NCBI GenBank assembly: GCA_000996355.1
Contig: LCAH01000001.1
Coordinates: 85,958 to 149,957 of the forward strand
DNA from: Candidatus Uhrbacteria bacterium GW2011_GWC2_41_11
GTDB lineage: Bacteria; Patescibacteriota; Patescibacteriia; UBA9934; GWF2-40-263
Reading direction: 5' to 3'
DNA length: 64,000 bases
Part shown: positions 10,922 to 60,301 of the stretch, one piece after another
Layout: every line of letters begins with the position of its first letter
How positions within the stretch are numbered: the stretch's first letter is position 1
Notes under the pieces: model-generated
What the model was told of the DNA's origin: nothing
Seen by the model: only the letters and a program-made list of their open reading frames with translations
Databases searched by the model: none
Made by a program: the position numbers and the translations under genes

Positions 10922-12211
10922 TTACACAAGCGGGAAATTTTTTTTGAGAAACTCCCCGAATTGTTCGACGAATTCTTCGTCATACCAATCATCCCAGGTG
11001 TACTGGGAGAGTGGTTCTATTCCACTCCTATCAAGAAAGATTTGAACATTGTCCACCCACCAATCCTTGCTTGACGAACCTATGTTATCGTCAAGAAAGA
11101 TTCCGTGGACTTGCCTGGTACCGACAATGGCGAATCCACTTGGGTAGTTGTCACTGGCATAGAGGACACTTCCTCCGTACCCATGAATCTTCAGCGCTTT
11201 GACCCAATCTTTAAAGAGAGAGGATTCGGAATAGATAAAGAAATTATACGATTTCTTTGCCTTTGGTCCAGGTATAACTGTGACACCAAAGGCACCAAGC
11301 ACCGTTTCGTCTCTGACTTTTTCAATCAGAGGGACGTCGGCGTCTTTGTAACGCTGAATGCGCTGCGCGTCTTTTATGAGACCTTGTGCCTCAATGTCCA
11401 AACACACAAGGAATTCCAGTTTTATTCCATCCGCAGCGGCTTTTTCCCGCAGCTCTGCAATGACTTGTCGAGTCTTCTCAACTTCACCGCGTCGGATATA
11501 CGTGAAAATTTCGTCCGTTTTCCAAAGCGGGGAAGGAAAGACCTCCCCTTTTTTTTCAAGAAACTGAATGAGAGTTCCACTAATTGTCGGTGTATCAGTG
11601 GAAGAGACATCGATTTCTTGTGTCCCAATAGATTCGGAGACAAAGTCAAAGACAAGTCGACAAAGATATTGCCGATCGTCTGTTCTTTTTTTGTCGACCC
11701 CTCCGAAACGAGTCCATGTCTCTTTGACAAGGATTGTCCCGTCCGCTGTTGAGAGTTCGTAGCTCGCCTGTTGAGAAGTATCTTTTCGTATGCCCCATTG
11801 CATGGAGATAAGAAGTTCGTCGCCGAGGGTCATCCCGAGATTTATTCCCGCAGGTTTCGTCTGCGAAAGATAATCACCCAGGGTCAGACCGCGGTCTTTG
11901 GGTCTTACGATACGGAGCGGTGCGCCCGCGATTGCTTCCAGCAGTTTAATTCGCGGAAGCACGGCGTCCTTCAGGTAAATGTCGAGCTCGTCATCTTTGA
12001 GACTACGGATCGTGTCGTCGAACACATCCTTTCCATGATCTCTGCGGATGATCGCGAGGAACCGGCAACTCCTGGCTTCCTCATCGCTATAGTTTAGCGA
12101 CTGCGCCTTTTCAAATGCACCATTTGGACTCATTGTTCCTGCAATCTGCAGGAGTTCTTCATGAGTCAGTGCCAATCGTGATCGAACTTTCAAATCTTCT
12201 ATATCTCTCAT
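10922..12211 (-). CDS. Hypothetical protein (429 aa) in a GC-elevated segment at the 3' side of tRNA-Val; possibly horizontally acquired
   Basis: Long ORF with SD-like caggagg 6 nt upstream of the ATG. Local GC is about 50-52% by eye against about 40-42% in flanking genes. I recognise no domain (segments such as HGYGGSVLYASDNYPSGFAIVGTRQVHGIFLDDN match nothing I know). Confidence 0.6.
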   Translation of the reverse strand: MRDIEDLKVRSRLALTHEELLQIAGTMSPNGAFEKAQSLNYSDEEARSCRFLAIIRRDHGKDVFDDTIRSLKDDELDIYLKDAVLPRIKLLEAIAGAPLRIVRPKDRGLTLGDYLSQTKPAGINLGMTLGDELLISMQWGIRKDTSQQASYELSTADGTILVKETWTRFGGVDKKRTDDRQYLCRLVFDFVSESIGTQEIDVSSTDTPTISGTLIQFLEKKGEVFPSPLWKTDEIFTYIRRGEVEKTRQVIAELREKAAADGIKLEFLVCLDIEAQGLIKDAQRIQRYKDADVPLIEKVRDETVLGAFGVTVIPGPKAKKSYNFFIYSESSLFKDWVKALKIHGYGGSVLYASDNYPSGFAIVGTRQVHGIFLDDNIGSSSKDWWVDNVQIFLDRSGIEPLSQYTWDDWYDEEFVEQFGEFLKKNFPLV

Positions 12212-12348: not shown

Positions 12349-12425
12349 TGGTGGACGCACCTGGATTCGAACCAGGGACCTCTGCAATGTGAATGCAGCG
12401 CTCTAACCAACTGAGCTATGCGTCC
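12349..12425 (-). tRNA. tRNA-Val (anticodon CAC)
   Basis: Reverse complement folds as a cloverleaf: acceptor GGACGCA/TGCGTCC, D-arm GCTC-AGTTGGTTA-GAGC, anticodon stem CTGCA/TGCAG with loop TTCACAT (U33, CAC, A37), T-arm CCTGG-TTCGAAT-CCAGG, and an encoded CCA. Confidence 0.9.
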
Positions 12426-34581: not shown

Positions 34582-35586
34582 ATGAACACAAAAAAGAGAG
34601 TGCTTACAGGAGATAGACCAACAGGAAAACTTCATTTAGGTCATTATGTTGGATCTCTCCAAAATCGTCTAAGACTTCAATCCGAACACGAGCAAATTTT
34701 TTGTATGATCGCTGATTTGCAGGCTCTTACAGATCACGCAGATCATCCAGAAAAAGTTCGAAAGAATGTTTTGGAAATTACCATGGATAATCTTGCTGTA
34801 GGTTTGGATCCAGATAAAACAGTATTTTTTATTCAATCCCACATTCCAGAAATTGCGGAACTTACCGTGTTGTTCATGAATTTAGTTACGCTCGCACGTC
34901 TTAAACGAAATCCAACTGTGAAGGATGAAATGAAACAAAAAGGATATGGCGAGGATGTTCCTGCTGGATTTTTGGCATACCCAATAAGTCAGGCTGCAGA
35001 TATTTTAACTTTTCATGCAAATAGTATTCCTGTTGGGGAAGATCAACTTCCTGTTCTTGAACAGACGAATGAAATTGTGACAAAGTTTAATAGTCTTTAT
35101 GGAAATCTTTTTTCAAAAATCGAACCTGTTCTCTCAACAGTTCCAAGGCTTGTTGGTGTTGATGGTGGTGCCAAGGCAGGAAAATCATTAGGAAATGCTA
35201 TTTATCTCAGTGATTCAAAAGAGGAAATCATGAGAAAGGTGATGATGATGTACACTGATCCTGATCATATTCGTATGGAGATGCCAGGAAAGATTGAAGG
35301 AAATGTTGTCTTTACCTATCTTGACGTATTTGATCCAGATAAAGAAACTATGCAGATATTAAAAACAAAATACAGTCAAGGTGGACTCGGAGATGTCGAA
35401 ATAAAATATCGTCTTGTGGATATTCTTGAAAACTTTATTGCTCCTATAAGAGAAAAAAGAATTGAGTATGAGTGTCATCCAGAGATGGTATTGCGTATTC
35501 TTGAAGAAGGAACAAATAGAGCACGTGAAATTGCAAAAGAAACAATGTGTGAAGTGAAAAAAGCAATTGGTCTTGATTATTTTTGA
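34582..35586 (+). CDS. trpS: Tryptophanyl-tRNA synthetase
   Basis: Class I HIGH region GDRPTGKLHLGHYVGSL; KMSKS-like GAKAGKSLGN; size typical of TrpRS. Confidence 0.92.
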   Translation: MNTKKRVLTGDRPTGKLHLGHYVGSLQNRLRLQSEHEQIFCMIADLQALTDHADHPEKVRKNVLEITMDNLAVGLDPDKTVFFIQSHIPEIAELTVLFMNLVTLARLKRNPTVKDEMKQKGYGEDVPAGFLAYPISQAADILTFHANSIPVGEDQLPVLEQTNEIVTKFNSLYGNLFSKIEPVLSTVPRLVGVDGGAKAGKSLGNAIYLSDSKEEIMRKVMMMYTDPDHIRMEMPGKIEGNVVFTYLDVFDPDKETMQILKTKYSQGGLGDVEIKYRLVDILENFIAPIREKRIEYECHPEMVLRILEEGTNRAREIAKETMCEVKKAIGLDYF

Positions 35587-35592
35587 AAGATT

Positions 35593-36081
35593 ATGACGTA
35601 TCATCCAACGGTTAAACAAATTATTTCTTTGCTCACCGAACATGAATGTTGGTTTACAACATTTGAACATGAGCCAACGACAACGAGTGAAGAATCAGCA
35701 AATGTTCGACCAGAATACACGCTTCATCATGGAGCAAAAGCAATGATTGTTCGGGTAAAGATATCTGAAACAAATAAAAAATATGTAATGCTTGTATTTC
35801 CAGGGGATCATAAATTTGATCGTCAAAAAGTTCAGTATTTTTTTGAGGCAAAAGATGTTCGATTGGCAACTCCTGAAGAAGTGGGTGCACAAACCGGAGG
35901 AATACAGATTGGGGGTGTTCCGCCATTTGGTCAACTTTTTGGTATGGAGGTGATTGTGGATCCATCTTTGTTAGAGAACGAACAGATGATATTTAATGCA
36001 GGAGATCGTTGTTTTTCCATTGCGATGAGGACAGCGGATTATAAAAATTTGGTTCACCCGGTTATTGCGAAAATGATATAA
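35593..36081 (+). CDS. YbaK/ProX-type aminoacyl-tRNA deacylase domain protein
   Basis: Glycine-rich GGIQIGGVPPFG and surrounding YbaK-fold pattern. Confidence 0.7.
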   Translation: MTYHPTVKQIISLLTEHECWFTTFEHEPTTTSEESANVRPEYTLHHGAKAMIVRVKISETNKKYVMLVFPGDHKFDRQKVQYFFEAKDVRLATPEEVGAQTGGIQIGGVPPFGQLFGMEVIVDPSLLENEQMIFNAGDRCFSIAMRTADYKNLVHPVIAKMI

Positions 36082-40121: not shown

Positions 40122-40199
40122 GGATCGGTGGTGTAGCCCGGTTAACACGTCTCCCTGTCACGGAGAAGATCGAGGGTTCGAATCCCTTCCGGTCCGCCA
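40122..40199 (+). tRNA. tRNA-Asp (anticodon GTC)
   Basis: Acceptor GGATCGG/CCGGTCC; D-arm GTGT-AGCCCGGTTA-ACAC; anticodon stem TCTCC/GGAGA with loop CTGTCAC (U33, GUC, A37); T-arm GAGGG-TTCGAAT-CCCTT; discriminator G; encoded CCA. Confidence 0.9.
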
Positions 40200-40392
40200 G
40201 GACTATTCAGTATCGTGCAACCCGAGTGGCTGCAAAAGATAATGGAAAGTCCAAACCCACAAAATCGCCTTAGGGGCGATTTTGTGTTTGGGGTGAGTGT
40301 AAGTTCCTTTGAAAGTGAACTGGTTTGTTTTAGTTGTTTTTCGTTTATTTCATTACCTTACCTTGGTACTCTCTTTAGCATACCTTTGAAAT

Positions 40393-41541
40393 CTACAGAC
40401 TTTTGAGCAATGAAGATTCAAAGGTCCGAACAACCTTTTGGTCTTTTGCGAAACGCTCCTCTGCTAATTGGATGAGTTTTTGAATGAGATCGACATTCGA
40501 TACGCCAGAAGCTTTCCAATTATGGTGGTAGAGGCTGCCGGGGAGTGTATTTACCTCATTCACGAATACCTGATTCGTCTTCGAGTCGATCAAAAAGTCA
40601 ACGCGAGCAATACCGGTACAGCCCAAAACTTTGTACACCGCTTTACCAAGCTTCAAGACTTCCTTGGAGAGATCTGGAGGGATGTTTGCAGGTATCTCGC
40701 TATAGTTATTATTCACGCCCGAATCAGATCCTTTCTTGCCACCCGACAGATATTTATCTTCAAAGTTGAAAAACTCAGTCTTGTTGAGTGGGCGTTCGAT
40801 GGAAGCTGGCGTCAATATATCGTTACCCATGATTGGAAGCGTGACTTCAATAAGATTCTCAACGCTTTCTTCGACGAGCACTTTATTATCATAGTGAGAT
40901 GCGACTTCGAGCGCTTGCTCTAATTCTGACCGATCCTTAACTTTTGTGATCGCAATAGAGGAGCCGAGATGTACGGGCTTCACGAAGAGAGGCCATTGTA
41001 GCACGCTGGCACGCTCTATAAAGCCCTTTCTATCCTTCTCCCAGACATTTTGTGTGAGCCACTCGTAACGCACAACTGGTAAACCAGCCGCAGACACCAC
41101 TTGCTTTGTTAAAACTTTGTCCATCGCAACTGCAGAAGCGGCCATGTCGCAGCCTACGAAAGGTACATTCGCCATGCGAAGAATACCCATCAAGCTTCCA
41201 TCTTCTCCATATGTGCCGTGCATAGCGGGAAAGACCAGATCAATGTCGATCTTTTTTGAAACCATTCCAGAGAGGACAATAGAAAATTTCTCCCCAATAG
41301 AAAGTTGGAGTGGCTTCAGCTTTGTGAACTTGTCTTGAATATCGCCCTTAAAATAGTCCATGTAGTTCATCTGCTTTTCTGAATACCAGAGCCCTTCTTT
41401 TGTAATGTAGATTGGAATTACCTCGTACTCATCTAATGTGAGAAGTGTGTCGATAATTGGAGTATGAGCGGTGATGATTGAAACATCATGCTCCGCGCTT
41501 TTTCCGCCAAAAATGACGGCAATTGTTTTTTTGTTCTTCAT
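40393..41541 (-). CDS. ddl: D-alanine--D-alanine ligase
   Basis: IAVIFGGKSAEHDVSI; VFPAMHGTYGEDGSLMGIL; ATP-grasp region ARVDFLID...VNEVNTLPG. Start set at the internal ATG (MKNKKTIAVIFGG), just downstream of the MurF-like stop. Confidence 0.9.
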   Translation of the reverse strand: MKNKKTIAVIFGGKSAEHDVSIITAHTPIIDTLLTLDEYEVIPIYITKEGLWYSEKQMNYMDYFKGDIQDKFTKLKPLQLSIGEKFSIVLSGMVSKKIDIDLVFPAMHGTYGEDGSLMGILRMANVPFVGCDMAASAVAMDKVLTKQVVSAAGLPVVRYEWLTQNVWEKDRKGFIERASVLQWPLFVKPVHLGSSIAITKVKDRSELEQALEVASHYDNKVLVEESVENLIEVTLPIMGNDILTPASIERPLNKTEFFNFEDKYLSGGKKGSDSGVNNNYSEIPANIPPDLSKEVLKLGKAVYKVLGCTGIARVDFLIDSKTNQVFVNEVNTLPGSLYHHNWKASGVSNVDLIQKLIQLAEERFAKDQKVVRTFESSLLKSL

Positions 41542-41551
41542 AGTTTTGTTA

Positions 41552-42979
41552 TTAGATATATTGATCTGGCCAGTCGTTCTGCAAGAGAACAATGTCGCCT
41601 TTTACTGTAATGCGAGGTAAGGCGGCGAACGATTTCAAGGCCTCGTCAAACCAGATAACCTCCCCTTCATATTTTTCTTCATACAGTCCTTCCTCGATGA
41701 ACGGAGTCACGGAATTTTTAACAAGTACAACTTTTTCGATTTGAGCTCTGGCTAACTCTCTCCCAATTTCACGGTGCACTTCTTCCTTCTTGGAGCCCAT
41801 TTCAACTAAGCCCGGTGTTACATAGAAGCGTCGTCCATTTAGTGATGCGAGAAATGCAATAACCGCCTTAACGCCATCTGGATTACCGTTATAGCTGTCA
41901 TCAAGCGTTGTTACGCCATTTCTATCTACGCTTGGAGCAAGACGATGATCAAAAGGCTTTGTCTTCAACGTTCCTGCACGGATATGAGAAGGGGTGGAAC
42001 CCAATCGCCTTGCAAGATCTGCGGAAAGGGCAAGAGGTCCGATCTGGTGCAGGCCCAACAGCGAGGATCGTATTTCCATCGGAACGTTGTTCTTCTCCAT
42101 AACAAACGACGTCCCAGAAAGATCTGAATGTGCGTTCTCCATGCGCCAACTGTTAACGCCTTCACGGCTATACATGATGTGGTTCGGGCGTGCATGGTCG
42201 CGAGCCAATATACTCTCACCGTTTACGTATAAAGGTTTATCGCCGAGGAAATCAGCAAGTTCATAAATTGTCTGTACCGTTTTTTCAATAGTCTTAAATT
42301 TTTGGAGATGTGCTTCGTTGATGCCGGTAATGATTCCAATATCCGGGTTGATCAATTTACATAACCTTTTTACATCGCCGGGATAGTATTCTCCCAACTC
42401 AAAGATAAGCACCTCCTCGTTGCCTCGTAACGTTTTGATAAATTTACTGATGCCAAGTGGCGTATTATAGCTATGTGGTGGGGCAGCGACTTCTTTATCT
42501 TCCGATAGGACCGTTTTCAAAATTTCGCGCATGGACGTCTTTCCGTAACTCCCGGCGATAGCAATCTTTACTCCATGATGTTCTGCGAGCTTTTTCTTTG
42601 CAAAATAAATGATGACGAATTCGATTGGTTTCTGGACAAGCAATTGAATTATTGTGAGAGGTGCAAGGATGAGGTAACTAAGTAAGATGGGGGACAAAAT
42701 AATAATCGCGGCGCCCAGTACATGCCTAAAGGGTAGATTGGTGGCGATTATGAGCCAAAGACCAGATGAAGCAATGCTAATCAATAACATCAGGCCGACA
42801 AATACAAGTAAGACCGTTTTTGCGGACCATTTTATCTGTTTACGCTTTTCAACAAAGCGAAAATCTTTGACATCATGAAGCCATGCAAGATAATCTTGCG
42901 CCTTGTATTCGCTTGCTTGGAGCATATAGACCAAAGAACGAATATATCGAGGATGGAATCTTGAAAAAAATAGCCTCAT
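41552..42979 (-). CDS. Mur ligase family protein, MurF-like (UDP-MurNAc-tripeptide--D-Ala-D-Ala ligase-like); an N-terminal ~120-aa multi-TM segment stands in place of the usual N-domain
   Basis: Mur ligase P-loop IAIAGSYGKTSMREIL; C-terminal TPGLVEMGSKKEEVHREIGRELA resembling MurF; the first ~120 aa are hydrophobic helices; 4-nt overlap with the hydrolase gene. Confidence 0.75.
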   Translation of the reverse strand: MRLFFSRFHPRYIRSLVYMLQASEYKAQDYLAWLHDVKDFRFVEKRKQIKWSAKTVLLVFVGLMLLISIASSGLWLIIATNLPFRHVLGAAIIILSPILLSYLILAPLTIIQLLVQKPIEFVIIYFAKKKLAEHHGVKIAIAGSYGKTSMREILKTVLSEDKEVAAPPHSYNTPLGISKFIKTLRGNEEVLIFELGEYYPGDVKRLCKLINPDIGIITGINEAHLQKFKTIEKTVQTIYELADFLGDKPLYVNGESILARDHARPNHIMYSREGVNSWRMENAHSDLSGTSFVMEKNNVPMEIRSSLLGLHQIGPLALSADLARRLGSTPSHIRAGTLKTKPFDHRLAPSVDRNGVTTLDDSYNGNPDGVKAVIAFLASLNGRRFYVTPGLVEMGSKKEEVHREIGRELARAQIEKVVLVKNSVTPFIEEGLYEEKYEGEVIWFDEALKSFAALPRITVKGDIVLLQNDWPDQYI

Positions 42980-43725
42980 ACAAAAGCGTTTATTAGTTTA
43001 GCTACACGCTTTGCATCAGATACAAATACAAAATGATCAGCACCCCCTATTATTTTGAGTTGGGAGTTTTGAATGCAGTTATTTAGCGTTCTCGCGTCAG
43101 CAAGTGGCGTCTGTTGATCCTGATCACCCCAGATGAGAAGCGTTGGGAGTGTGAGCTTGCTCGCATCATCCCTTAAATCTTCGCTCACGACTTTTACAAA
43201 CGTATCTTTCAAGTTACCTGCGTTGCGGTAGTCTTCACTACCTACTGTTCGTGTAGCGTAGTTTTTTAATCGTTTTCGTATCGATGCCACAGGGATGATG
43301 GAGATAGCCATCTTGCCGATCTTGATCACCAAAGAAATGCAATGATGAAAGAATGTTTTTTGCGATACGCCTGCTGCGCCAATGAGTACAAGTTTCTTCG
43401 GGAGTAAGATCGCTGTTGCTATTGCCTTTATAGCAACTCGACCTCCAAAAGAATGAGCAATAATAGTATCAATTTCAGAAATGTTGAGTTTTTTAAGAAA
43501 TGACGCGAGGAACTGAGCGTAGTCGACAACTCCCCACGGATTGGGTGGAGTTTCACTTTTTCCAAACCCCGGAAACGAAAGTGAGACGAATCTCTTATTT
43601 TTCAGCTCACGTACGAGTGGATCAAAAGAAAACGCATTACCACCCCAGCCATGGAGCAATAATACGACCGGTCCAGAACCGGTATCTTTGTATTCAGTAT
43701 CGATGTCGTCAACAATGATCTGCAT
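42976..43725 (-). CDS. Alpha/beta-fold hydrolase
   Basis: HGWGGN oxyanion region; nucleophile elbow AHSFGG; C-terminal GGADHFV region (catalytic Asp/His). Confidence 0.8.
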   Translation of the reverse strand: MQIIVDDIDTEYKDTGSGPVVLLLHGWGGNAFSFDPLVRELKNKRFVSLSFPGFGKSETPPNPWGVVDYAQFLASFLKKLNISEIDTIIAHSFGGRVAIKAIATAILLPKKLVLIGAAGVSQKTFFHHCISLVIKIGKMAISIIPVASIRKRLKNYATRTVGSEDYRNAGNLKDTFVKVVSEDLRDDASKLTLPTLLIWGDQDQQTPLADARTLNNCIQNSQLKIIGGADHFVFVSDAKRVAKLINAFV

Positions 43726-43765
43726 GTAAGCGGTCTTGATGACGACATGTGGTGACCATCAAGTT

Positions 43766-44545
43766 TTATGAATTTTCTCTGAACCGTTGCCAGATTTGTT
43801 CGAACATCCAGCGCTGTGCGCTTGCAAATTCTTTCGATCGCACGATAAAGCCAATGATCCCTGTCTTTTCGTTAAATGAGAGCATGGCAATTTTGTCGCC
43901 AAAAATATATGTCTCATTTTCAAAGGGTGCTTTCCCCTTAACGATTCGCGTTTCACGCCTGCTCGTTTTATCAGCTTTTTGGATGTTTCGGGCTTCTGGT
44001 GAATCTGTCGCAATCAGACGAAGGGTGATGTTTTGCGCGACGCGACGTTGAATAAAGGCGTCGTGATATTCTCGAGAGAACACACGATCTTCTTCTTCGA
44101 AGTTCGACATGAGAAGAAGCTCAAAGTCAGAACCGGAAAGAATATCTTCCGTAATCTGATGTAACCCTTCAATGCCGGTGAATGTCTGAAGCACAGGACG
44201 GTCGTTACGACTCCCATATTGAGCAAGGAGTTCCGGCATGGATTCTTGGATAGATTCCACCTGCCGACGCATTCGTCGGATCTCTGTTCGCAACCTAGCA
44301 ATGATTGCTTTTGGTTCACGCGTCCAAATGATCTTGCGATTGCCCATATTCTCCTCGTCCATGAGACCAAGCTCCTGAAGTTGCTGATAGGCGGCATAAG
44401 CAGACGAACGATCCATCTTTGTTGCCTTTGCAATTTGTCCTACAGAAGAACGTCCAAGTTTATAGCTGGCAAGGAAAAAAGTGATCGCGTTTGGACTTAC
44501 ACGAAGATTTTCCAAAGAAGATTTAATACTTGTGAGCTCGGCCAT
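43766..44545 (-). CDS. TrmB-family transcriptional regulator
   Basis: N-terminal wHTH (LENLRVSPNAITFFLASYKLGRSSVGQIAKATKMDRSSAYAAYQQLQELGLM). Same length and architecture as the ORF at 58082-58855. Confidence 0.7.
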   Translation of the reverse strand: MAELTSIKSSLENLRVSPNAITFFLASYKLGRSSVGQIAKATKMDRSSAYAAYQQLQELGLMDEENMGNRKIIWTREPKAIIARLRTEIRRMRRQVESIQESMPELLAQYGSRNDRPVLQTFTGIEGLHQITEDILSGSDFELLLMSNFEEEDRVFSREYHDAFIQRRVAQNITLRLIATDSPEARNIQKADKTSRRETRIVKGKAPFENETYIFGDKIAMLSFNEKTGIIGFIVRSKEFASAQRWMFEQIWQRFRENS

Positions 44546-44634
44546 ATAATAGCGTTAGGAGTTTCTTTGTAGAAATAAATCAGACGATTTCGTTATAATA
44601 CTAGAAAAACTACTGTATTTAGTGAGAAAAGTCA

Positions 44635-44653
44635 ATCTACTAGTGTAGTAGAT
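44635..44653. promoter_or_regulatory. Perfect 8-bp inverted repeat (ATCTACTA-GTG-TAGTAGAT), about 90 bp upstream of the TrmB-like gene; candidate operator
   Basis: Palindrome seen directly. On the minus strand it abuts a TTGACT -35-like hexamer. A consensus TATAAT occurs at 44594-44599 on the plus strand. Confidence 0.3.
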
Positions 44654-45010
44654 AGTTCTACAACAATATTACATGGGTTTGCGCATCCGAAATACACGGA
44701 TTTTGTAATTTTTCATTGTTGATAATCCTCCAAGAGCCTCACAACTCAAACTTCGTAAACCAGCTTACTTTTCAGGTTCCCAAGTAGGAATCGTTTTTCC
44801 GTGACGCTGCCTTCTTTGAGTAGGTACTTCGCATACTCCATGTTATTTTAGAATTCAACCCTTCCTTTTTAACTACTGTCTCATTTTATCTCAAATCTCT
44901 CAAAAAGACCCCGACCCACTCGCCTCAAATCGCCCCAAAAATAACCGTCGAAAAACCCTTGAAATACCCCTGGTTTTTTGGTTCATAACTCATGCGTCCC
45001 GCCACATAAA

Positions 45011-45033
45011 AGCGACCCACGTGGTCGTTTTTA
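45011..45033 (+). terminator. Short GC hairpin plus T-run inside a 555-bp noncoding stretch
   Basis: gcgacc-cacgt-ggtcg followed by ttttt; no annotated plus-strand gene upstream of it. Confidence 0.3.
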
Positions 45034-45100
45034 TGTTTAACCAAAGCTTTCTTTTAGATGAGCTTCATGGTACAGTTTTCTTAATTGACTTCAGTCGATT

Positions 45101-45640
45101 ATGTGTTCGATTCAACGATTTTTCCTCGGTTTAAGCCTGATGGGTGCGTTGTGTGGGTTGCTCGTCAATGCCACGCCCACTTTCGCCTGTTCTTGTGTTC
45201 GAGCGACGTCGACTGAACAGTTTAATGATGCGACGACGGTTTTTGTTGGAAGAGTAAAAAGTATTTCCGAAGATAGTAGTTCTCGATCCGTCGACTTTAA
45301 TGTGAGTGAATCGCAGAAAGGTTCGGTCGCTGAAAACGTAACCGTGACGACCGGCTTGGGCGGTGGTGATTGCGGTTTCGATTTTGAAGTAGGTCATGAG
45401 TACATGGTCTACACCCGTGGACAAGAACAGCTTAGCACGAATATCTGCGTCGGAACCTCTTTCATTGCAAGTACTCAGGACGGCAATAGAGAAGATGACG
45501 CTGCGAGCAATCCCGAAGTATCGACTATAGAGTTGGACACCGAAGATAATTCCGTCGGTTCTTTCGTTATTATCGTGCTCATTTGCTTTTGCTTAGGTGC
45601 ATTGGTGGTGTATCTAATAGGACGTAAGAAGACCAGATAG
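45101..45640 (+). CDS. Membrane-anchored extracellular TIMP/NTR-like (metalloprotease-inhibitor-like) domain protein
   Basis: Signal peptide ending ...TFA, so the mature N-terminus would begin CSC as in TIMPs. CSCVRATSTEQFNDATTVFVGRVK aligns with TIMP CSCSP..QAFCNADVVIRAK. GDCGFDFEVGHEYMVYT...STNICVGTSF aligns with TIMP SVCG...KEYLIAG...ITLCDF. A D/S-rich linker and a C-terminal TM follow (FVIIVLICFCLGALVVYLIG-RKKTR). Confidence 0.7.
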   Translation: MCSIQRFFLGLSLMGALCGLLVNATPTFACSCVRATSTEQFNDATTVFVGRVKSISEDSSSRSVDFNVSESQKGSVAENVTVTTGLGGGDCGFDFEVGHEYMVYTRGQEQLSTNICVGTSFIASTQDGNREDDAASNPEVSTIELDTEDNSVGSFVIIVLICFCLGALVVYLIGRKKTR

Positions 45641-45824
45641 TTATGGAATAAGAGTCCCTCCACATGCCTCAAAATCATCCAGACAGAAATTGCATAAACT
45701 CCTTCGAGTCCCGTCCGTTCCGTTGTAAAAAACTCAGTTCACGCTGATTTTTTTGTATAAACAACAAACCCCGCGTCGAACGACGGTTAACCCGAGTAGG
45801 GTTTGTCGTTTCGCGCAGGGTGAA

Positions 45825-46388
45825 TCAGAGTTTGGTCGGCGTGAAATCGCTCCAACGCTTTATCTCGTGGAAGGCGTTGGGTGTGATATTGGCACTCGTC
45901 GCGTCATCTTGATAGAGCACGAGCTCGTTGTTTATAAGACAAAGCAGGTCCCCCGTGTCGATCGTTACACCAGTCTGATAGATCCACCCCATGCGCGGAA
46001 TGATCGCGAGCGGTTCGGAGCGATCCGGGCAGGAGTTGATCAGTCGATCGGCCAGTCTCACGTGGGAGTCACGCCTATCCGTACGTGCTATCCAGAGCAC
46101 GTCCTTGAGCAAGCTCACCTCCAAGTTGTTGCCACTGACGTGGACGTCGTGTCCTTTTTGAGTTGCTGTGATGATGAAGAGTCCCTTCGGACTGAGACAA
46201 AAGAGCTGGTCGGACCACGGGTTGGGTTGCTGTGCCCTGTAGCCGATGGTGTAGCCCATGCCGATCTTGTTACCACAGAAGTTGTCCAGGTCGACCGAGG
46301 TGTGAAAATCGAGGTTTGGCGTCGTCTCCGTCTGCGATGGGGAACAACAACAACCGCTGATTATGATAATAAGAGCAAGAATGTACAT
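45825..46388 (-). CDS. Lipoprotein (~187 aa), hypothetical
   Basis: Start at the internal ATG giving MYILALIIIISGCCCS, a lipoprotein signal with lipobox ISGC. The antisense + strand ORF (45753-46475) has no such features. Confidence 0.55.
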   Translation of the reverse strand: MYILALIIIISGCCCSPSQTETTPNLDFHTSVDLDNFCGNKIGMGYTIGYRAQQPNPWSDQLFCLSPKGLFIITATQKGHDVHVSGNNLEVSLLKDVLWIARTDRRDSHVRLADRLINSCPDRSEPLAIIPRMGWIYQTGVTIDTGDLLCLINNELVLYQDDATSANITPNAFHEIKRWSDFTPTKL

Positions 46389-46537
46389 CACATCTCCTTT
46401 ATGGTGGGGAAGAGTATACAACGAGACTTCGTTGCCGGTTGTGCCGCAGGATTTTTTGGCAACAAAAAAAGATAACAAAAATATCGATTTTCGTCAAGAA
46501 ATTTGATTTGTGTGTCATTTATTGCTATGAGGTGTTT

Positions 46538-46864
46538 TCATTTTTTTTGAAGAAGTTTTTGGGTCACTTTCGTAGCGATTTTATTCGAGACTTGATTGAT
46601 TGGTCCGTGATGATATGGATCCATTTCTCTAAGAAGTGGGGCAATAAATTCCAATTCCAGACTTTCCATAACATGTGGGTGTCCTTTGCTCTCTATAAGT
46701 GCTTCAACAGCAATCTCGATCACCTCATCTAAGATTTTTTCCGCGTTTTCTCTCGTTCGGTTATTCTCATTTTTTCCTTCCTTTATAAAGCGATCTTTCA
46801 AATTCATAAATCGTTTCGCTGTTTGTTCTACCGAAAATTCTCCATGTCCGGATTCTCTTTCCAT
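46538..46864 (-). CDS. Hypothetical protein (108 aa)
   Basis: ORF only, helical and charged; preferred over an overlapping low-complexity + strand ORF. Confidence 0.35.
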   Translation of the reverse strand: MERESGHGEFSVEQTAKRFMNLKDRFIKEGKNENNRTRENAEKILDEVIEIAVEALIESKGHPHVMESLELEFIAPLLREMDPYHHGPINQVSNKIATKVTQKLLQKK

Positions 46865-46911
46865 ATTTTGAGAAATAAATAGTTTCTTTAGAAAAAAGAT
46901 ACCAAGTTCTG

Positions 46912-48273
46912 TTGGTTAGATCAAATTTAATGAAATGTATCTTTAAATCAAATGGAGTTTTTTCTTTTTCTTTTTCTTTCTTGTATCATAGAAGAAAAAT
47001 ATTAGATCTTTGTTTTATGCCTTCTTACGATTCTGAATTACGACGACTAGATACAGCACGCGAATTTGGACAAAGGGATTATTTTGCTGATCTTGCTTTT
47101 ATTGAGAATCTTTATATAAACACAAATATTCATCGGGAAGATCGTGCAAAACTTTTACGAGATGCTGTTCGATTTCCGATTTTTGATCAAGGTATTCATG
47201 GATCAGGAGGAATAGAAGATATAGAGAAATTTTTGAATCAATTGAATTTTTCTTCAAAAACAGCATTTATTTCTTCTCTTTCCAGAGCATTTGGAAAGAG
47301 AGTTTCAGAACGGTTATATCAGAAGTTTCTTTCGGATTTTAAACGTAGTCTGAATCGGTATTTGGAGAACTATCAACCAGATAGTTTTTTCACGGTTCGA
47401 GAATCTGATCAGGTCGAAAAGATGCAACAATATACCGAGGAGGAATTGAGGAAAGAAGTAGTAAATATTGTTCAATTCATCGAAGAAAAAAATATGCAAT
47501 ATGAGGATTTTGATTTGGTTCTTCACGATGCTCTCTTTTTTACCTGTGCATCTACAAAGAAGAGTTATGAATCAAGTCCAAATAAAAAAGCAATGGAAAT
47601 AGTTGGCTTCCTTAATAAAAAATATGGAAAGGAAAAAGTTCGATTGTATAAAGAAAACATAAAAAGAGTGTGTGCACCTGATTATCATGGGACAGATGAA
47701 GTTGAAAGAAGATTATATGAATTGTTTGCACCATTGAATAATTTAGATTCAAGAGATGTGAAGAGTGTGATTCAACAGAGTGCGATGTATTTTCAAGATG
47801 CGGGTTTACCTCGATGGAAATTTTCAGAAGAGTCATCTGTAAGAAGTTTTGTTTCTTCTGTGAAACAAATGCTGGAATATCAAATTAAAAAAGAAAAACA
47901 CGAAGAATTATTTCAAAAACTTGGTTTATTTTTTGAGACAGAATCACAAAAAGTTGAAGAAAAACAACGAATAGAAAGAATGTATAAAGTAGATTCAAAA
48001 AAGATGGTGCCAAAAGAATATCAATACGAACTATGGGATCTCGGTAAAAAACGAAGAGAGATTTTTCCATTGTTTTTTGAATTTGATGTGGAAAAATCTA
48101 TCACAATTATTTCTCAAGCGACAAGAGATGCTGGTGTTCAAAAAGAATGGCCAAGAAAGTTTGATGAACCTGTATTGCAGCAAATCATGATTTATCTCAA
48201 TGAAATGCACGGGAAGGAAGTTGTTGATCGATTTGTTTCTTCTGTGAAACAACAGTGTGAAGGTTTGAAATAA
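46912..48273 (+). CDS. Hypothetical protein (up to 453 aa; alternative start 47020), all-helical, in an AT-rich segment
   Basis: Long ORF at about 33-36% GC by eye; no recognisable domain. Confidence 0.5.
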   Translation: MVRSNLMKCIFKSNGVFSFSFSFLYHRRKILDLCFMPSYDSELRRLDTAREFGQRDYFADLAFIENLYINTNIHREDRAKLLRDAVRFPIFDQGIHGSGGIEDIEKFLNQLNFSSKTAFISSLSRAFGKRVSERLYQKFLSDFKRSLNRYLENYQPDSFFTVRESDQVEKMQQYTEEELRKEVVNIVQFIEEKNMQYEDFDLVLHDALFFTCASTKKSYESSPNKKAMEIVGFLNKKYGKEKVRLYKENIKRVCAPDYHGTDEVERRLYELFAPLNNLDSRDVKSVIQQSAMYFQDAGLPRWKFSEESSVRSFVSSVKQMLEYQIKKEKHEELFQKLGLFFETESQKVEEKQRIERMYKVDSKKMVPKEYQYELWDLGKKRREIFPLFFEFDVEKSITIISQATRDAGVQKEWPRKFDEPVLQQIMIYLNEMHGKEVVDRFVSSVKQQCEGLK

Positions 48274-48341
48274 TTTTTTATCCTTGACATTCAAGTCACG
48301 GCATGGTTTTTTTGTGGCAGGTCTTTTAAAAAGGAGAAACA

Positions 48342-58081: not shown

Positions 58082-58855
58082 ATGGAAGAACTCATTCGCG
58101 AACTCATTCATCTTGGCCTCTCTGAAAAAGAGGGTGCTGTTTATCTTGCCTCCCTTGAATTAGGGCCAGCTGTTGTCCAAGACATTGCCAAAAAAGCGAA
58201 TGTTAATCGTGCGACTACCTACGTCATGATTGAAACTTTGGCTGCTCGTGGACTCATGAGCACGTTTGTTAAAGGAAAGAAACGTTTTTTTGCTGCAGAA
58301 TCTCCAGAACGTTTATTGACGATTGTTCGTCTTCAGCGCCGAGAATTGGAAGAAAAAGAAAAAGAAATTAGTTCTGTTTTGCCAAAACTTCACGCAGTTT
58401 ATAATATTGAAGGGGTAAAACCCCAGATTCGTTATTTGGAAGGTGCAGAAGGAATTGTTTCGGTTATGGAAGTGTTTGAAGCCATGGAAGGGGAGTTTGT
58501 GGAAATGGTTTCCATTGACGACATCGAAAATATTCGCGAACTCATTCATCATCGCGAACGTCATTTGGAAGAACTTCAAAAACGCAATGTTTCTTATCGT
58601 CTGATTGCCGTCATGAAGAATCCTGATTTTTCTAAAGTGCCAAAAATTACCGGTGGAGAAGTGCGTCTGGTTCCTGCAGAAAAATTCCCTATTCATGGAG
58701 ATTTTATTGTTCGCAACAATACGGTTTTCCTTTACTCGTTTACAAGCGCCATGCTTGGTGTTGTTCTTACAAGCAAAGAGATCGCAGACACCTTGCGTCA
58801 GATGTTTAATCTTGCCTGGGAAGGATCTGCAAATTATCCGACAGAAAAACGGTAA
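58082..58855 (+). CDS. TrmB-family transcriptional regulator (paralog of 43766-44545)
   Basis: wHTH LSEKEGAVYLASLELGPAVVQDIAKKANVNRATTYVMIETLAARGLM; 257 aa against 259 aa for the other copy. Confidence 0.7.
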   Translation: MEELIRELIHLGLSEKEGAVYLASLELGPAVVQDIAKKANVNRATTYVMIETLAARGLMSTFVKGKKRFFAAESPERLLTIVRLQRRELEEKEKEISSVLPKLHAVYNIEGVKPQIRYLEGAEGIVSVMEVFEAMEGEFVEMVSIDDIENIRELIHHRERHLEELQKRNVSYRLIAVMKNPDFSKVPKITGGEVRLVPAEKFPIHGDFIVRNNTVFLYSFTSAMLGVVLTSKEIADTLRQMFNLAWEGSANYPTEKR

Positions 58856-58877: not shown

Positions 58878-58903
58878 AAAGACCTCCTAATAGGGGTCTT
58901 TTA
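58878..58903. terminator. Bidirectional rho-independent terminator
   Basis: aagacctcc-taata-ggggtctt followed by ttag; lies between convergent genes. Confidence 0.55.
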
Positions 58904-59131
58904 GTTTAGAAGGTTGTAACGCGATCGAGGTCTCGGTGGAGGAGACCAATTCGGATCAATGAACGGTAGAAACGGCGGACCCTTTGGTTCATTCGGTGTG
59001 ACCGGAACGATTTGTGGTTGTGGAACGTCCCAGATCGTCGGTCTTTGCGGTAAAGGTTCCTCATTGGGTTCCGCTGGTTTTCCAAACGGATATTCTTCAA
59101 ACCCATCTTGGCGAATGATTATAACCGCCAT
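58901..59131 (-). CDS. Small Pro-rich hypothetical protein (76 aa)
   Basis: Strong SD aaggag about 8 nt upstream of the ATG on the minus strand; Pro-rich (PPFLPFIDPNWSPPPRPR). Confidence 0.5.
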   Translation of the reverse strand: MAVIIIRQDGFEEYPFGKPAEPNEEPLPQRPTIWDVPQPQIVPVTPNEPKGPPFLPFIDPNWSPPPRPRSRYNLLN

Positions 59132-59280
59132 GATTCTTTCTCCTTCTACGTTTTCTACCTTCTACGAAAATATCACATCTTCTCTCTAACAAACTTGCAG
59201 ACATTTGTCCATGAATAAATAAATTCGTGGCCACATGTCTGCGCCGAACGGATGAATTCCGTTTGGCGAGAGTGTGTTAC

Positions 59281-59679
59281 TTATTTGCGAAGACCGCGCG
59301 CGAACAAATTCCATTCGCGCTCTACGTCGGTTGTGCCGCCATCCATTCGGACATATTTGGCAGCAGCTAAACCTGCTGGAGCCTTGCCACCCTCAAACAT
59401 GACCGGAAGAAGTTTGACAGGACGACCCTGTCTCTGACAACCGATCACTTCTATCCAGGCATTCGACACCCCTTCCTTTGTGTATGGAAGGAGGAAGAAT
59501 TTTATTCCTTGATCCAAATATTCCTGAATATTCCACAAGACGTGGATTTCACCAGGCTGACTTTCATGAGTCTGAATTTCGACTTCCGGAATTCGTGTCC
59601 GGAGTTCGGACAAAAATCGATCAACCTCGGGATTTTGTCCCGAAATATTTAGAACAAGGATTTTCATTTTTTGCTCCAA
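59281..59679 (-). CDS. Hypothetical cytoplasmic protein (132 aa) in a GC-elevated islet
   Basis: SD tggag 7 nt upstream; MKILVLNISG...HVLWN... suggests an alpha/beta fold (speculative). Confidence 0.5.
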   Translation of the reverse strand: MEQKMKILVLNISGQNPEVDRFLSELRTRIPEVEIQTHESQPGEIHVLWNIQEYLDQGIKFFLLPYTKEGVSNAWIEVIGCQRQGRPVKLLPVMFEGGKAPAGLAAAKYVRMDGGTTDVEREWNLFARGLRK

Positions 59680-59763
59680 AGTTTGCAGTCACCCAGTGGC
59701 GAACATTCACCACCGTGTGTCTGCGTTGAAGAAAAGATTCTTCAACGGAAGATGTTTTTGGTC

Positions 59764-60138
59764 TTACGGCATCCAGATGCCGTACCGCCGTCGGTAGTTG
59801 AGCTGGCGGTATATGTATCGGATTCCGCGGCCAAATCCCTGAAGCAGGGGTCGAAACATATTCCGCCAAAACCATCGACGGCTGGCCTCGAGAATGTGCC
59901 AGAGAGCCACGATTGGCTTCCGAACACACCATTTGAACCACCACTGAGCGCGGTGATCGAAATGGAGTGTGGGGATTTTTGCCCCAACAATCTCGAAGAT
60001 CATTCCCACACCAACAGGCAGTACCACAAATACCATGAATGTGGTGCAAAGCCAGGCAGTGATTCCGCCAGAAAATGGTTTGGTGATGAGTAACTCTGCC
60101 GCGCCCAAAAGCATCTGGGCGAGGTCGTCGATTGGCAT
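59764..60138 (-). CDS. Small membrane protein (124 aa), first gene of a two-gene minus-strand unit
   Basis: Perfect SD aaaggagg 7 nt upstream of the ATG; hydrophobic helices (ITAWLCTTFMVFVVLPVGVGMIFEIVG); Trp/Arg-rich C-terminus. Preferred over the overlapping + strand ORFs. Confidence 0.55.
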   Translation of the reverse strand: MPIDDLAQMLLGAAELLITKPFSGGITAWLCTTFMVFVVLPVGVGMIFEIVGAKIPTLHFDHRAQWWFKWCVRKPIVALWHILEASRRWFWRNMFRPLLQGFGRGIRYIYRQLNYRRRYGIWMP

Positions 60139-60301
60139 TTAAGCCTCCTTTGCCGCAAACGGAGCGGCATTTACTCCATTTTTTTTAAAAACAGATGTAT
60201 TTAATTTAGCAAAAAATAAGCTTTTTGTCAATTAGTTTAAACAATTTGTTTAAGAATGGTGAAAAAGACTTTAGAGACCGATATATGTTATACTTCTGCA
60301 T

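Follow-up and report, generated by a model that had tools for sequence, protein, structure and literature searches.

A housekeeping MurF-Ddl cassette with imported-looking codon usage lies 3' of a tRNA-Asp gene in an Uhrbacteria genome

We analyzed a 64,000-nucleotide stretch of DNA from Candidatus Uhrbacteria bacterium GW2011_GWC2_41_11 (GenBank assembly GCA_000996355.1, contig LCAH01000001.1, positions 85,958 to 149,957), hereafter the window, and in it a block of six genes at 40200-46480 that begins at the 3' end of a tRNA-Asp gene. A preliminary description, made from the sequence alone, had read the block as a ddl gene, a membrane-anchored MurF-like ligase, a hydrolase, a TrmB-like regulator, a TIMP-like protein, and a lipoprotein, possibly of horizontal origin. 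Its gene identifications proved correct, including the TIMP-like protein and the minus-strand lipoprotein. Five of the six genes lie on the minus strand between long runs of plus-strand genes, again as described, and no mur gene other than the murF of the block is present in the window. The edges of the block were also accurately placed, given that the flanking genes hyp186 and hyp108 have a background-like GC content at third codon positions (GC3) of 0.225 and 0.312, respectively. The features of the block are as follows, in window coordinates.

40122-40199, plus strand: tRNA-Asp(GTC), called by ARAGORN and matched by the Rfam tRNA model (64.4 bits); its 3' end is the left boundary of the deviant block.
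40249-40291, between the convergent tRNA-Asp and ddl genes: hairpin, likely a bidirectional terminator (-22.5 kcal/mol, z = -5.2, 0/200 shuffles as stable).
40393-41541, minus strand: ddl, DdlA-type D-alanine--D-alanine ligase of 382 amino acids (Pfam, NCBIfam, and PDB matches).
41552-42979, minus strand: murF variant, 475 amino acids (Pfam Mur_ligase_M and Mur_ligase_C, TIGR01143, PDB, and Foldseek matches).
42976-43725, minus strand: alpha/beta-fold serine hydrolase, 249 amino acids (Pfam Abhydrolase_1 and Abhydrolase_6).
43766-44545, minus strand: TrmB-like winged-helix regulator, 259 amino acids, the first gene of the cassette (paralogy and a weak Pfam TrmB match).
44546-44670, minus strand: conserved putative promoter/operator region (identity to the related loci L092 and L094, see below).
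44671-45100: non-coding spacer of 430 bp found only in this genome, with a hairpin at 45004-45036.
45101-45640, plus strand: sec179, a predicted secreted NTR/TIMP-fold protein of 179 amino acids (C-x-C motif, AlphaFold2 model, and Foldseek matches).
45703-45723, plus strand: candidate degenerate direct repeat of the tRNA-Asp 3' end (matches 40177-40197 at 17/20; intergenic, of uncertain significance).
45750-45812, minus strand: terminator-like hairpin right after the lipoprotein stop codon (-29.4 kcal/mol, z = -4.4).
45825-46388, minus strand: small lipoprotein, 187 amino acids, with lipobox IISGC (homologs, lipobox, and an AAGGAG motif).

The murF product contains Mur_ligase_M (E = 7.7e-24) and Mur_ligase_C (E = 7.9e-10) and no other Pfam domain. 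It scored 189 bits against the MurF model TIGR01143, compared with 42 and 36 bits against the murD and murC models. The match to TIGR01143 is limited to model positions 61-403 and stays under the trusted cut-off of 288.6 bits, a shortfall consistent with the absence of the canonical N-terminal domain. In a Foldseek search, its AlphaFold2 model (predicted local distance difference test, pLDDT, 86.5) had MurF structures as its ten best matches, and the PDB sequence matches are likewise MurF. By profile, PDB sequence, and fold, the protein is therefore closest to MurF among the Mur ligases, and its gene adjoins ddl. With the MurF enzymes of T. maritima (3zl8), E. coli (1gg4), and P. aeruginosa (4cvk-4cvm) it shares the central ATP-binding domain with a GxxGKT P-loop and the C-terminal domain; the P-loop motif, here GSYGKTS, is invariant across 20 homologs. 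The front end of the protein is different. The canonical N-terminal domain of MurF contacts the UDP-MurNAc part of the substrate, and PDB structures of MurF align with the block protein only from residue ~115-138. In place of this domain stand ~135 conserved helical residues with a predicted membrane hairpin. According to the structure model, residues 1-135 are all-helical and consist of a conserved motif, a two-helix membrane hairpin (~53-103), and a connector helix; hydropathy maxima lie at 56-74 and 87-105. Among 20 homologs drawn from many phyla, the N-terminal motif does not vary. No description of such a membrane-anchored MurF, or of its operon, was found in full-text literature searches, which is not in itself proof of novelty.

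MurT of the MurT-GatD complex (S. aureus 6gs2, 7q8e) likewise belongs to the Mur-ligase homologs that lack the canonical N-terminal UDP-substrate domain, and it was among the Foldseek matches, but MurF structures matched far better (E ~1e-22 versus ~1e-15). MurT acts on a membrane-bound, lipid-linked precursor. Unlike the block MurF, it has no membrane hairpin, and its partner is a glutaminase rather than a serine hydrolase. The resemblance between the two is an analogy, not evidence of function. The partner of the block MurF is encoded immediately upstream: the hydrolase stop codon overlaps the murF start codon by 4 nt (ATGA), hence translational coupling is probable. The predicted catalytic residues Ser92, Asp203, and His231 and the oxyanion-hole residues G26-W27 are at least 95% conserved in 74 orthologs, and judged by these residues the hydrolase is catalytically intact and presumably active. 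The nearest solved structures are generic esterases and perhydrolases.

We then considered the same genes in a sample of 80 species-representative Patescibacteria genomes (loci L012-L091). The hydrolase, MurF, and Ddl genes follow one another in that order and on one strand in 69 of the 80 loci, typically 0-25 bp apart. By our reading of the coordinates, contig ends cut all but ~2 of the remaining 11 loci, and the hydrolase gene is directly upstream of murF in 79/80. In every genome of the sample, MurF has a predicted membrane anchor and no canonical N-terminal domain. Equally long MurF homologs that include the N-terminal module, ~60% identical to the block protein, occur in Uhr-, Sung-, Levy-, Kaiser-, and Liptonbacteria, Nanosyncoccaceae, and others. 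The near-universal presence of this trio argues that it is the default D-Ala-D-Ala pathway of the clade rather than an accessory module. The core of the block is thus the standard Patescibacteria cell-wall precursor operon, and the adjacency of murF and ddl provides a context for a predicted addition of D-Ala-D-Ala to UDP-MurNAc-tripeptide.

The preliminary description had offered two functional readings, a Van-like D-Ala-D-X precursor-modification module or the organism's housekeeping murF-ddl pair. Ddl is a full-length ATP-grasp ligase with Pfam domains Dala_Dala_lig_N and Dala_Dala_lig_C (its true start is MKNKK; the listed open reading frame (ORF) has an in-frame TTG upstream). Its best PDB matches are DdlA enzymes, and it resembles DdlA-type ligases (7u56, 3q1k, 3i12) throughout, differing only by its GC3-rich codon usage here. 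The protein exceeds the cut-offs of two D-Ala-D-Ala ligase models, NF002528 (324 bits, cut-off 262) and TIGR01205 (275 bits, cut-off 246). By contrast, it reached 160-251 bits against Van-type models with cut-offs of 495-775 (VanG 251/495, VanA 166/775) and 211 bits against the generic D-Ala-D-Lac model (cut-off 550). The omega-loop Lys-Tyr pair, which bears on Ddl specificity, is retained (FEDKYL aligned with YDTKYI of DdlA structures); its tyrosine corresponds to Tyr216 in E. coli DdlB numbering. What speaks for a separately regulated module that builds a D-Ala-D-X terminus instead is the company of a Ddl-family and a MurF-family ligase with a hydrolase and a dedicated regulator, away from the division and cell-wall (dcw) cluster, a layout that recalls the VanHAX and VanC/E/G clusters. 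Nevertheless, the ligase is far under all D-Ala-D-Lac and D-Ala-D-Ser cut-offs and keeps the Lys-Tyr pair, the hydrolase is an alpha/beta serine enzyme rather than a zinc peptidase such as VanX or VanY, and no VanH, VanX, VanY, VanT, or VanRS homolog was found among the block proteins or their neighbors, so that the dehydrogenase, the racemase, and the two-component system are all missing. Moreover, the trio is clade-universal rather than accessory. We consider a Van-like module very improbable, and it is the housekeeping alternative that the near-universal Patescibacteria arrangement supports.

The trio is preceded here by the regulator gene. The direct Pfam TrmB match of the regulator is weak (E = 0.005, 17 bits, below the cut-off of 25.6), and a PDB sequence search with it returned no meaningful match. 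It is, nevertheless, a full-length paralog (E = 3e-22) of the protein encoded at 58082-58855, which itself has a recorded Pfam TrmB match. The closest operons were found in L093 (MurF 89% identical), L092 (76%), and L094/L012 (75%), which are family-level relatives by sequence. The TrmB-like gene is present at the same spacing in L092 and L094/L012 (83-86% identical); the L093 contig is short and covers only the three enzyme genes. Conservation extends into the ~125 nt upstream of the regulator gene, which are 56-71% identical in pairwise comparison with L092 and L094, with 66 columns invariant in all three. Further upstream, identity drops to 21-34%, and in comparisons of the same genomes four-fold synonymous sites have diverged almost to saturation. 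The conserved region (44546-44670) carries TGTAG/CTACA half-sites (TGTTGTAG...CTACTACA, CAGTAG, TTCTACAAA) and a TTGAC box; in promoter and terminator consensus scans, promoter matches were not in excess of those in shuffled sequences. Outside the cassette, neighboring genes are wholly different in each genome, with three unrelated contexts in three relatives. We also noted that in L094, the 75% relative, a 177-aa ORF with a GC content of 0.62 and GC3 of 0.74 lies downstream of ddl. The same 1.3-5 kb downstream of ddl in L094/L012 hold tRNA-His and tRNA-Arg genes (L012 14553-14763) and a tyrosine integrase gene. The ORF, the two tRNAs, and the integrase (L094 13840-14373 and 16866-17786) suggest a variable, tRNA-associated region there too.

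Next, we compared the base composition and codon usage of the block with those of its surroundings. The GC content of 40200-46480 is 0.445, compared with 0.413 for the remainder of the window, and the block is the highest-GC 6.3-kb stretch in it. The rise reported in the preliminary description was thus confirmed, but not its 47-55%: 500-bp windows between 40.25 and 46.0 kb range from 0.38 to 0.49, and only 45.75-46.5 kb reaches 0.51-0.54. GC3 reaches 0.69 in the lipoprotein, 0.49 (0.488) in Ddl, 0.47 (0.472) in sec179, 0.44 in both MurF and the regulator, and 0.39 in the hydrolase, against a background of 0.297 ± 0.048 (39 window genes). The excess is confined to the third codon position (z = +2 to +4 for individual genes, with the lipoprotein at +8). 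Neither GC1 nor GC2 shows a rise, and we accordingly rejected amino-acid constraint in conserved enzymes as its cause. When relative synonymous codon usage was compared with the background, the four-gene unit gave a correlation of r = 0.64, whereas random four-gene sets of background genes gave 0.94 ± 0.02 with a minimum of 0.83. In tetranucleotide content the block ranks 1/116 on two measures. These sliding-window and tetranucleotide comparisons, which the preliminary description had proposed as a test of its reading, show that the deviation is real. The anomaly persists under a same-strand control. A lagging-strand effect was rejected, because other minus-strand genes have a GC3 of 0.27-0.34 and sec179, on the plus strand, is also high. 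An intrinsic GC3 excess of the trio was rejected as well: the GC3 of the trio minus that of its flanks averages -0.004 (sd 0.045) in 65 other genomes, none of which exceeds +0.10, compared with +0.15 here. As the same trio matches its flanks in those genomes, the anomaly is specific to this one. Lastly, no Rfam match supports a structured RNA behind the GC peak at 45.75-46.5 kb, a region that encodes the lipoprotein with its homologs.

Other parts of the window also deviate in composition. Among 45 tabulated genes, the only other strong GC3 outlier is an orphan gene of 429 amino acids at 10922-12211 (minus strand, GC3 0.47), which lies directly 3' of a tRNA-Val gene (12349-12425, minus strand) and so likewise adjoins a tRNA; a search of that junction for a repeat of the tRNA-Val end gave nothing significant (P = 0.08). 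A second compositional islet at 58900-60200 (minus strand, GC 0.47-0.54) holds three small minus-strand genes of 76-128 amino acids without Pfam matches; its ORFs reach a GC3 of 0.44-0.63, and one resembles a membrane protein. Bordering the block, 46500-48300 is very AT-rich (GC 0.31-0.34), so that its deviation is opposite to that of the block. Two orphan genes (108 and ~418 amino acids) lie in this stretch, and a 21-nt sequence at 47848 recurs there perfectly, as a direct repeat, at 48232.

The two remaining genes of the block, sec179 and the lipoprotein gene, lie beyond a spacer (44671-45100) that is unusual in an otherwise compact genome. Its largest ORF is 39 aa, Rfam gave no match at E ≤ 1, relatives have no homologous sequence, and its hairpin has a perfect 14-bp stem (-18 kcal/mol, z = -5.3). 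The predicted layout of sec179 comprises a signal peptide followed by C-x-C, a beta core, and a C-terminal transmembrane segment (155-173). Homologs of sec179 are few and not linked to murF; C-x-C is present in every aligned homolog that spans the region, and the pattern GGGDCGFDF...Y...LST.IC is also kept. Foldseek searches with its AlphaFold2 model (pLDDT ~80 in the core, 59 overall) returned almost exclusively NTR/TIMP folds at the top, albeit with modest scores: the PCOLCE NTR domain (E = 2.4e-4), TIMP-2, TIMP-1 (target-normalized TM-score 0.55), C345C, meteorin, and agrin NtA. Consistent with an NTR/TIMP fold, sec179 shares with TIMP-1, TIMP-2, the PCOLCE NTR module, and complement C345C a Cys-x-Cys after the signal peptide, two further conserved cysteines, and a predicted beta core. 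It differs from them by its C-terminal membrane anchor, and it has no Pfam (TIMP/NTR) or NCBIfam match at E ≤ 0.01.

The lipoprotein gene is the strongest compositional outlier (GC 0.54, GC3 0.69). Public annotations of the locus call instead a plus-strand ORF of 240 aa at 45753-46475. We rejected this as a shadow ORF, because the minus-strand ORF has homologs, a lipobox, and a Shine-Dalgarno sequence (AAGGAG, 8 nt before the ATG). There are 22 representative homologs, one annotated as Patescibacteria, and several are collinear over the full length with lipoboxes; a lipobox is present in five of the seven retrieved homologs (VGC, TAC, LAGC, or VTGC), and the remaining two are anchored N-terminally. 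In addition, the terminator hairpin at 45750-45812 overlaps the supposed TTG start of the plus-strand ORF. Most likely, therefore, 45825-46388 is a real lipoprotein gene that public calls miss, a point of practical consequence. Neither sec179 nor the lipoprotein has homologs in ~2 Mb of related loci.

To the left of tRNA-Asp, the genes encoding TSP3, hyp335, YbeY, FtsA, FtsZ, NrdR, HtrA, and pyruvate kinase are syntenic in 38 relatives, many of which also have tRNA-Asp 0.1-5 kb after pyruvate kinase, in either orientation. None of these 38 relatives has Ddl, MurF, the hydrolase, or the right-flank genes of the window within 10 kb after pyruvate kinase. We also noted TrpRS and YbaK-type editing-domain genes between ftsZ and nrdR (34582-36081, plus strand), with a GC3 of 0.23-0.27 at the low end for the window; neither gene was detected in any mapped related locus, and most of these loci have ftsZ followed directly by nrdR. 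Housekeeping GC3 across the left-flank relatives (L175, L176, L180, and others) spans an unusually wide range, 0.25-0.91 with a median of 0.49, and in the four closest relatives by FtsA it is 0.62-0.80. DNA from almost any relative would consequently look GC3-rich here. A plausible donor lineage is also represented by L093, whose trio has the GC3 of the block trio at 88-90% nucleotide identity. The window itself matches contigs of GW2011_GWF2_41_16 and of several groundwater metagenomes; strain contigs (L001-L011) are >99.9% identical to the window and hence uninformative on origin. No FtsZ closer than 86% was found in the protein database, a gap that hints at incongruence with the operon, although metagenome-assembled genomes (MAGs) are incomplete. 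The FtsZ search and contig look-ups led to the MAGs GCA_964581945.1, GCA_016209325.1, and GCA_964373615.1, and not to the genomes with the closest operons.

Overall, we consider it reasonably probable that the block holds a housekeeping four-gene cassette whose imported-looking codons derive from higher-GC related Uhrbacteria. The cassette would be read on the minus strand from ~44670 down to 40393, that is, from the promoter/operator region through the regulator, hydrolase, MurF, and Ddl genes to a strong hairpin. Going by family membership, Ddl would make D-Ala-D-Ala and MurF would add it to the muramyl-tripeptide precursor. The two-helix hairpin, as predicted from the sequence and the structure model, would hold MurF at the membrane, where it presumably delivers its product to MraY. 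The hydrolase, probably co-expressed with MurF through the 4-nt overlap, may act together with it, and the TrmB-like regulator may bind the TGTAG/CTACA sites upstream of its own gene and thus regulate itself. Together with the two envelope-protein genes, the cassette would fill a variable region 3' of tRNA-Asp, having replaced or relocated a resident copy. That the cassette and its two neighbors entered by recombination from higher-GC relatives is a proposal towards which we lean only slightly; if there was a donor, it would be found among higher-GC relatives within the Patescibacteria and not outside them.

Several observations weigh against an import. The left-flank relatives are remote, with no pyruvate kinase more than 62% identical, and the site after pyruvate kinase is variable in all of them. 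MurF identity sits on a ~60% plateau across the radiation, too uniform to place the protein or to reveal incongruence. The cargo is essential housekeeping material, and any transfer must therefore have displaced the resident copy or added a second one. Among the proteins tested at 39.5-48.3 kb, Pfam, NCBIfam, and PHROG matched no integrase, transposase, or phage gene; the precomputed Pfam calls for the locus contain none, and the orphan neighbors had no PHROG match. The window has no integrase, in agreement with the preliminary description. That description had seen no direct repeat of the tRNA end either; a pattern search with up to three mismatches indeed found nothing, but local alignment revealed the 17/20 match at 45703-45723. 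This repeat is supported at P = 0.04 when the search is restricted to the 3' 45 nt and the same strand, and is within the range of shuffled sequences when unrestricted. The position next to a tRNA is also less telling than it seems. In 12/68 loci (17.6%), the 400 bp upstream of the trio include a tRNA, compared with 9.7% of other operon starts. The association appeared striking against a per-base null (P = 6e-7), but is only some twofold when set against other operon starts (P = 0.045, uncorrected for relatedness), with the tRNA co-oriented in 10 of the 12 loci and of six identities. Adjacency to tRNA-Asp is, hence, weak evidence for insertion here. Finally, the trio of L093 is 88-90% identical to that of the block at the nucleotide level and has the same GC content at four-fold sites despite a synonymous distance of 0.2-0.4. 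If the L093 genome is also low in GC, the anomaly would have arisen long ago and been kept since, and would not reflect a recent import. The horizontal origin proposed in the preliminary description is thus plausible but unproven: composition deviates and the site is not shared with relatives, while an integrase is missing and the repeat is weak. That description had also reasoned that same-lineage homologs in conserved synteny would argue against transfer. The nearest homologs do come from the same radiation and the internal synteny is kept, but the position at tRNA-Asp is not conserved.

Three other origins deserve consideration. The operon might be a vertical, long-resident one whose GC3 was raised by local mutation or repair bias, biased gene conversion, or synonymous selection. 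Such an operon is universal and essential in the clade, no mobility gene accompanies it, synteny decays fast and tRNA adjacency is common in these genomes, and the L093 comparison suggests that the composition could be maintained. Residence alone does not readily explain why the same three genes match their flanks in 65 other genomes, why unrelated neighbors on both strands (sec179 and the lipoprotein) deviate too, or why the deviation stops sharply at both ends and survives the same-strand control; nor are the well-expressed genes for FtsZ (GC3 0.27) and ribosome recycling factor (0.38) raised. We regard vertical descent as doubtful, although it is the rival with the most to commend it. A classical integrase-mediated island would span 40200-45723, with a decayed attR at 45703-45723, a lost integrase, and the lipoprotein as a separate, later arrival. 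The left edge of the block does coincide with the 3' end of the tRNA. Within the 8.8 kb from 40.2 to 49 kb, the highest-scoring alignment with tRNA-Asp involves that same end, in direct orientation and in an intergenic position, and the lipoprotein has a distinct, much higher GC3. Like tRNA-associated islands, the block further shows deviant composition and codons, an inverted strand, and absence from the site in relatives. Unlike them, it has neither an integrase or remnant in this region of the window nor a convincing repeat, and what it carries is not a set of accessory genes but an essential core operon, complete with a conserved regulatory region; moreover, ~10% of operon starts adjoin a tRNA anyway. 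We judge a classical island to be quite unlikely. That the block is an assembly chimera joining two related populations is suggested by the metagenome-assembled source and the sharp change in composition at both block ends. Both junctions, however, recur at >99.9% identity in independent samples and assemblers (ENA, JGI, NCBI, and Logan), on contigs of up to 157 kb. This recurrence excludes an artefact and leaves a chimera with next to no probability. Recombination from higher-GC relatives is therefore the origin that we continue to favor.

If this transfer is true, essential cell-wall genes are exchanged between related Patescibacteria, and the wide range of base composition in the group makes such exchanges visible. 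The local finding is modest; the clade-wide architecture of MurF matters more. Patescibacteria are tiny and host-dependent, and peptidoglycan synthesis is among the few pathways that they have kept. To our knowledge, the biology of their envelope is almost unstudied. A far-reaching and, in our view, unlikely possibility is that across the Patescibacteria the last cytoplasmic step of peptidoglycan-precursor synthesis differs from the textbook scheme, with a MurF whose substrate-recognition N-terminal domain has given way to a conserved membrane-embedded module and which is always co-expressed with an active serine hydrolase. A tethered MurF-hydrolase complex could then hand its product directly to MraY. 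More radically, and by analogy with MurT, the acceptor could be something other than free UDP-MurNAc-tripeptide, for example a lipid-linked precursor, in which case the hydrolase would perform a step of the pathway that has so far gone unrecognized. The predicted membrane MurF and its apparently intact hydrolase thus offer a testable entry into how Patescibacteria build their walls, and they flag the hydrolase as a conserved gene that probably belongs to an essential pathway.

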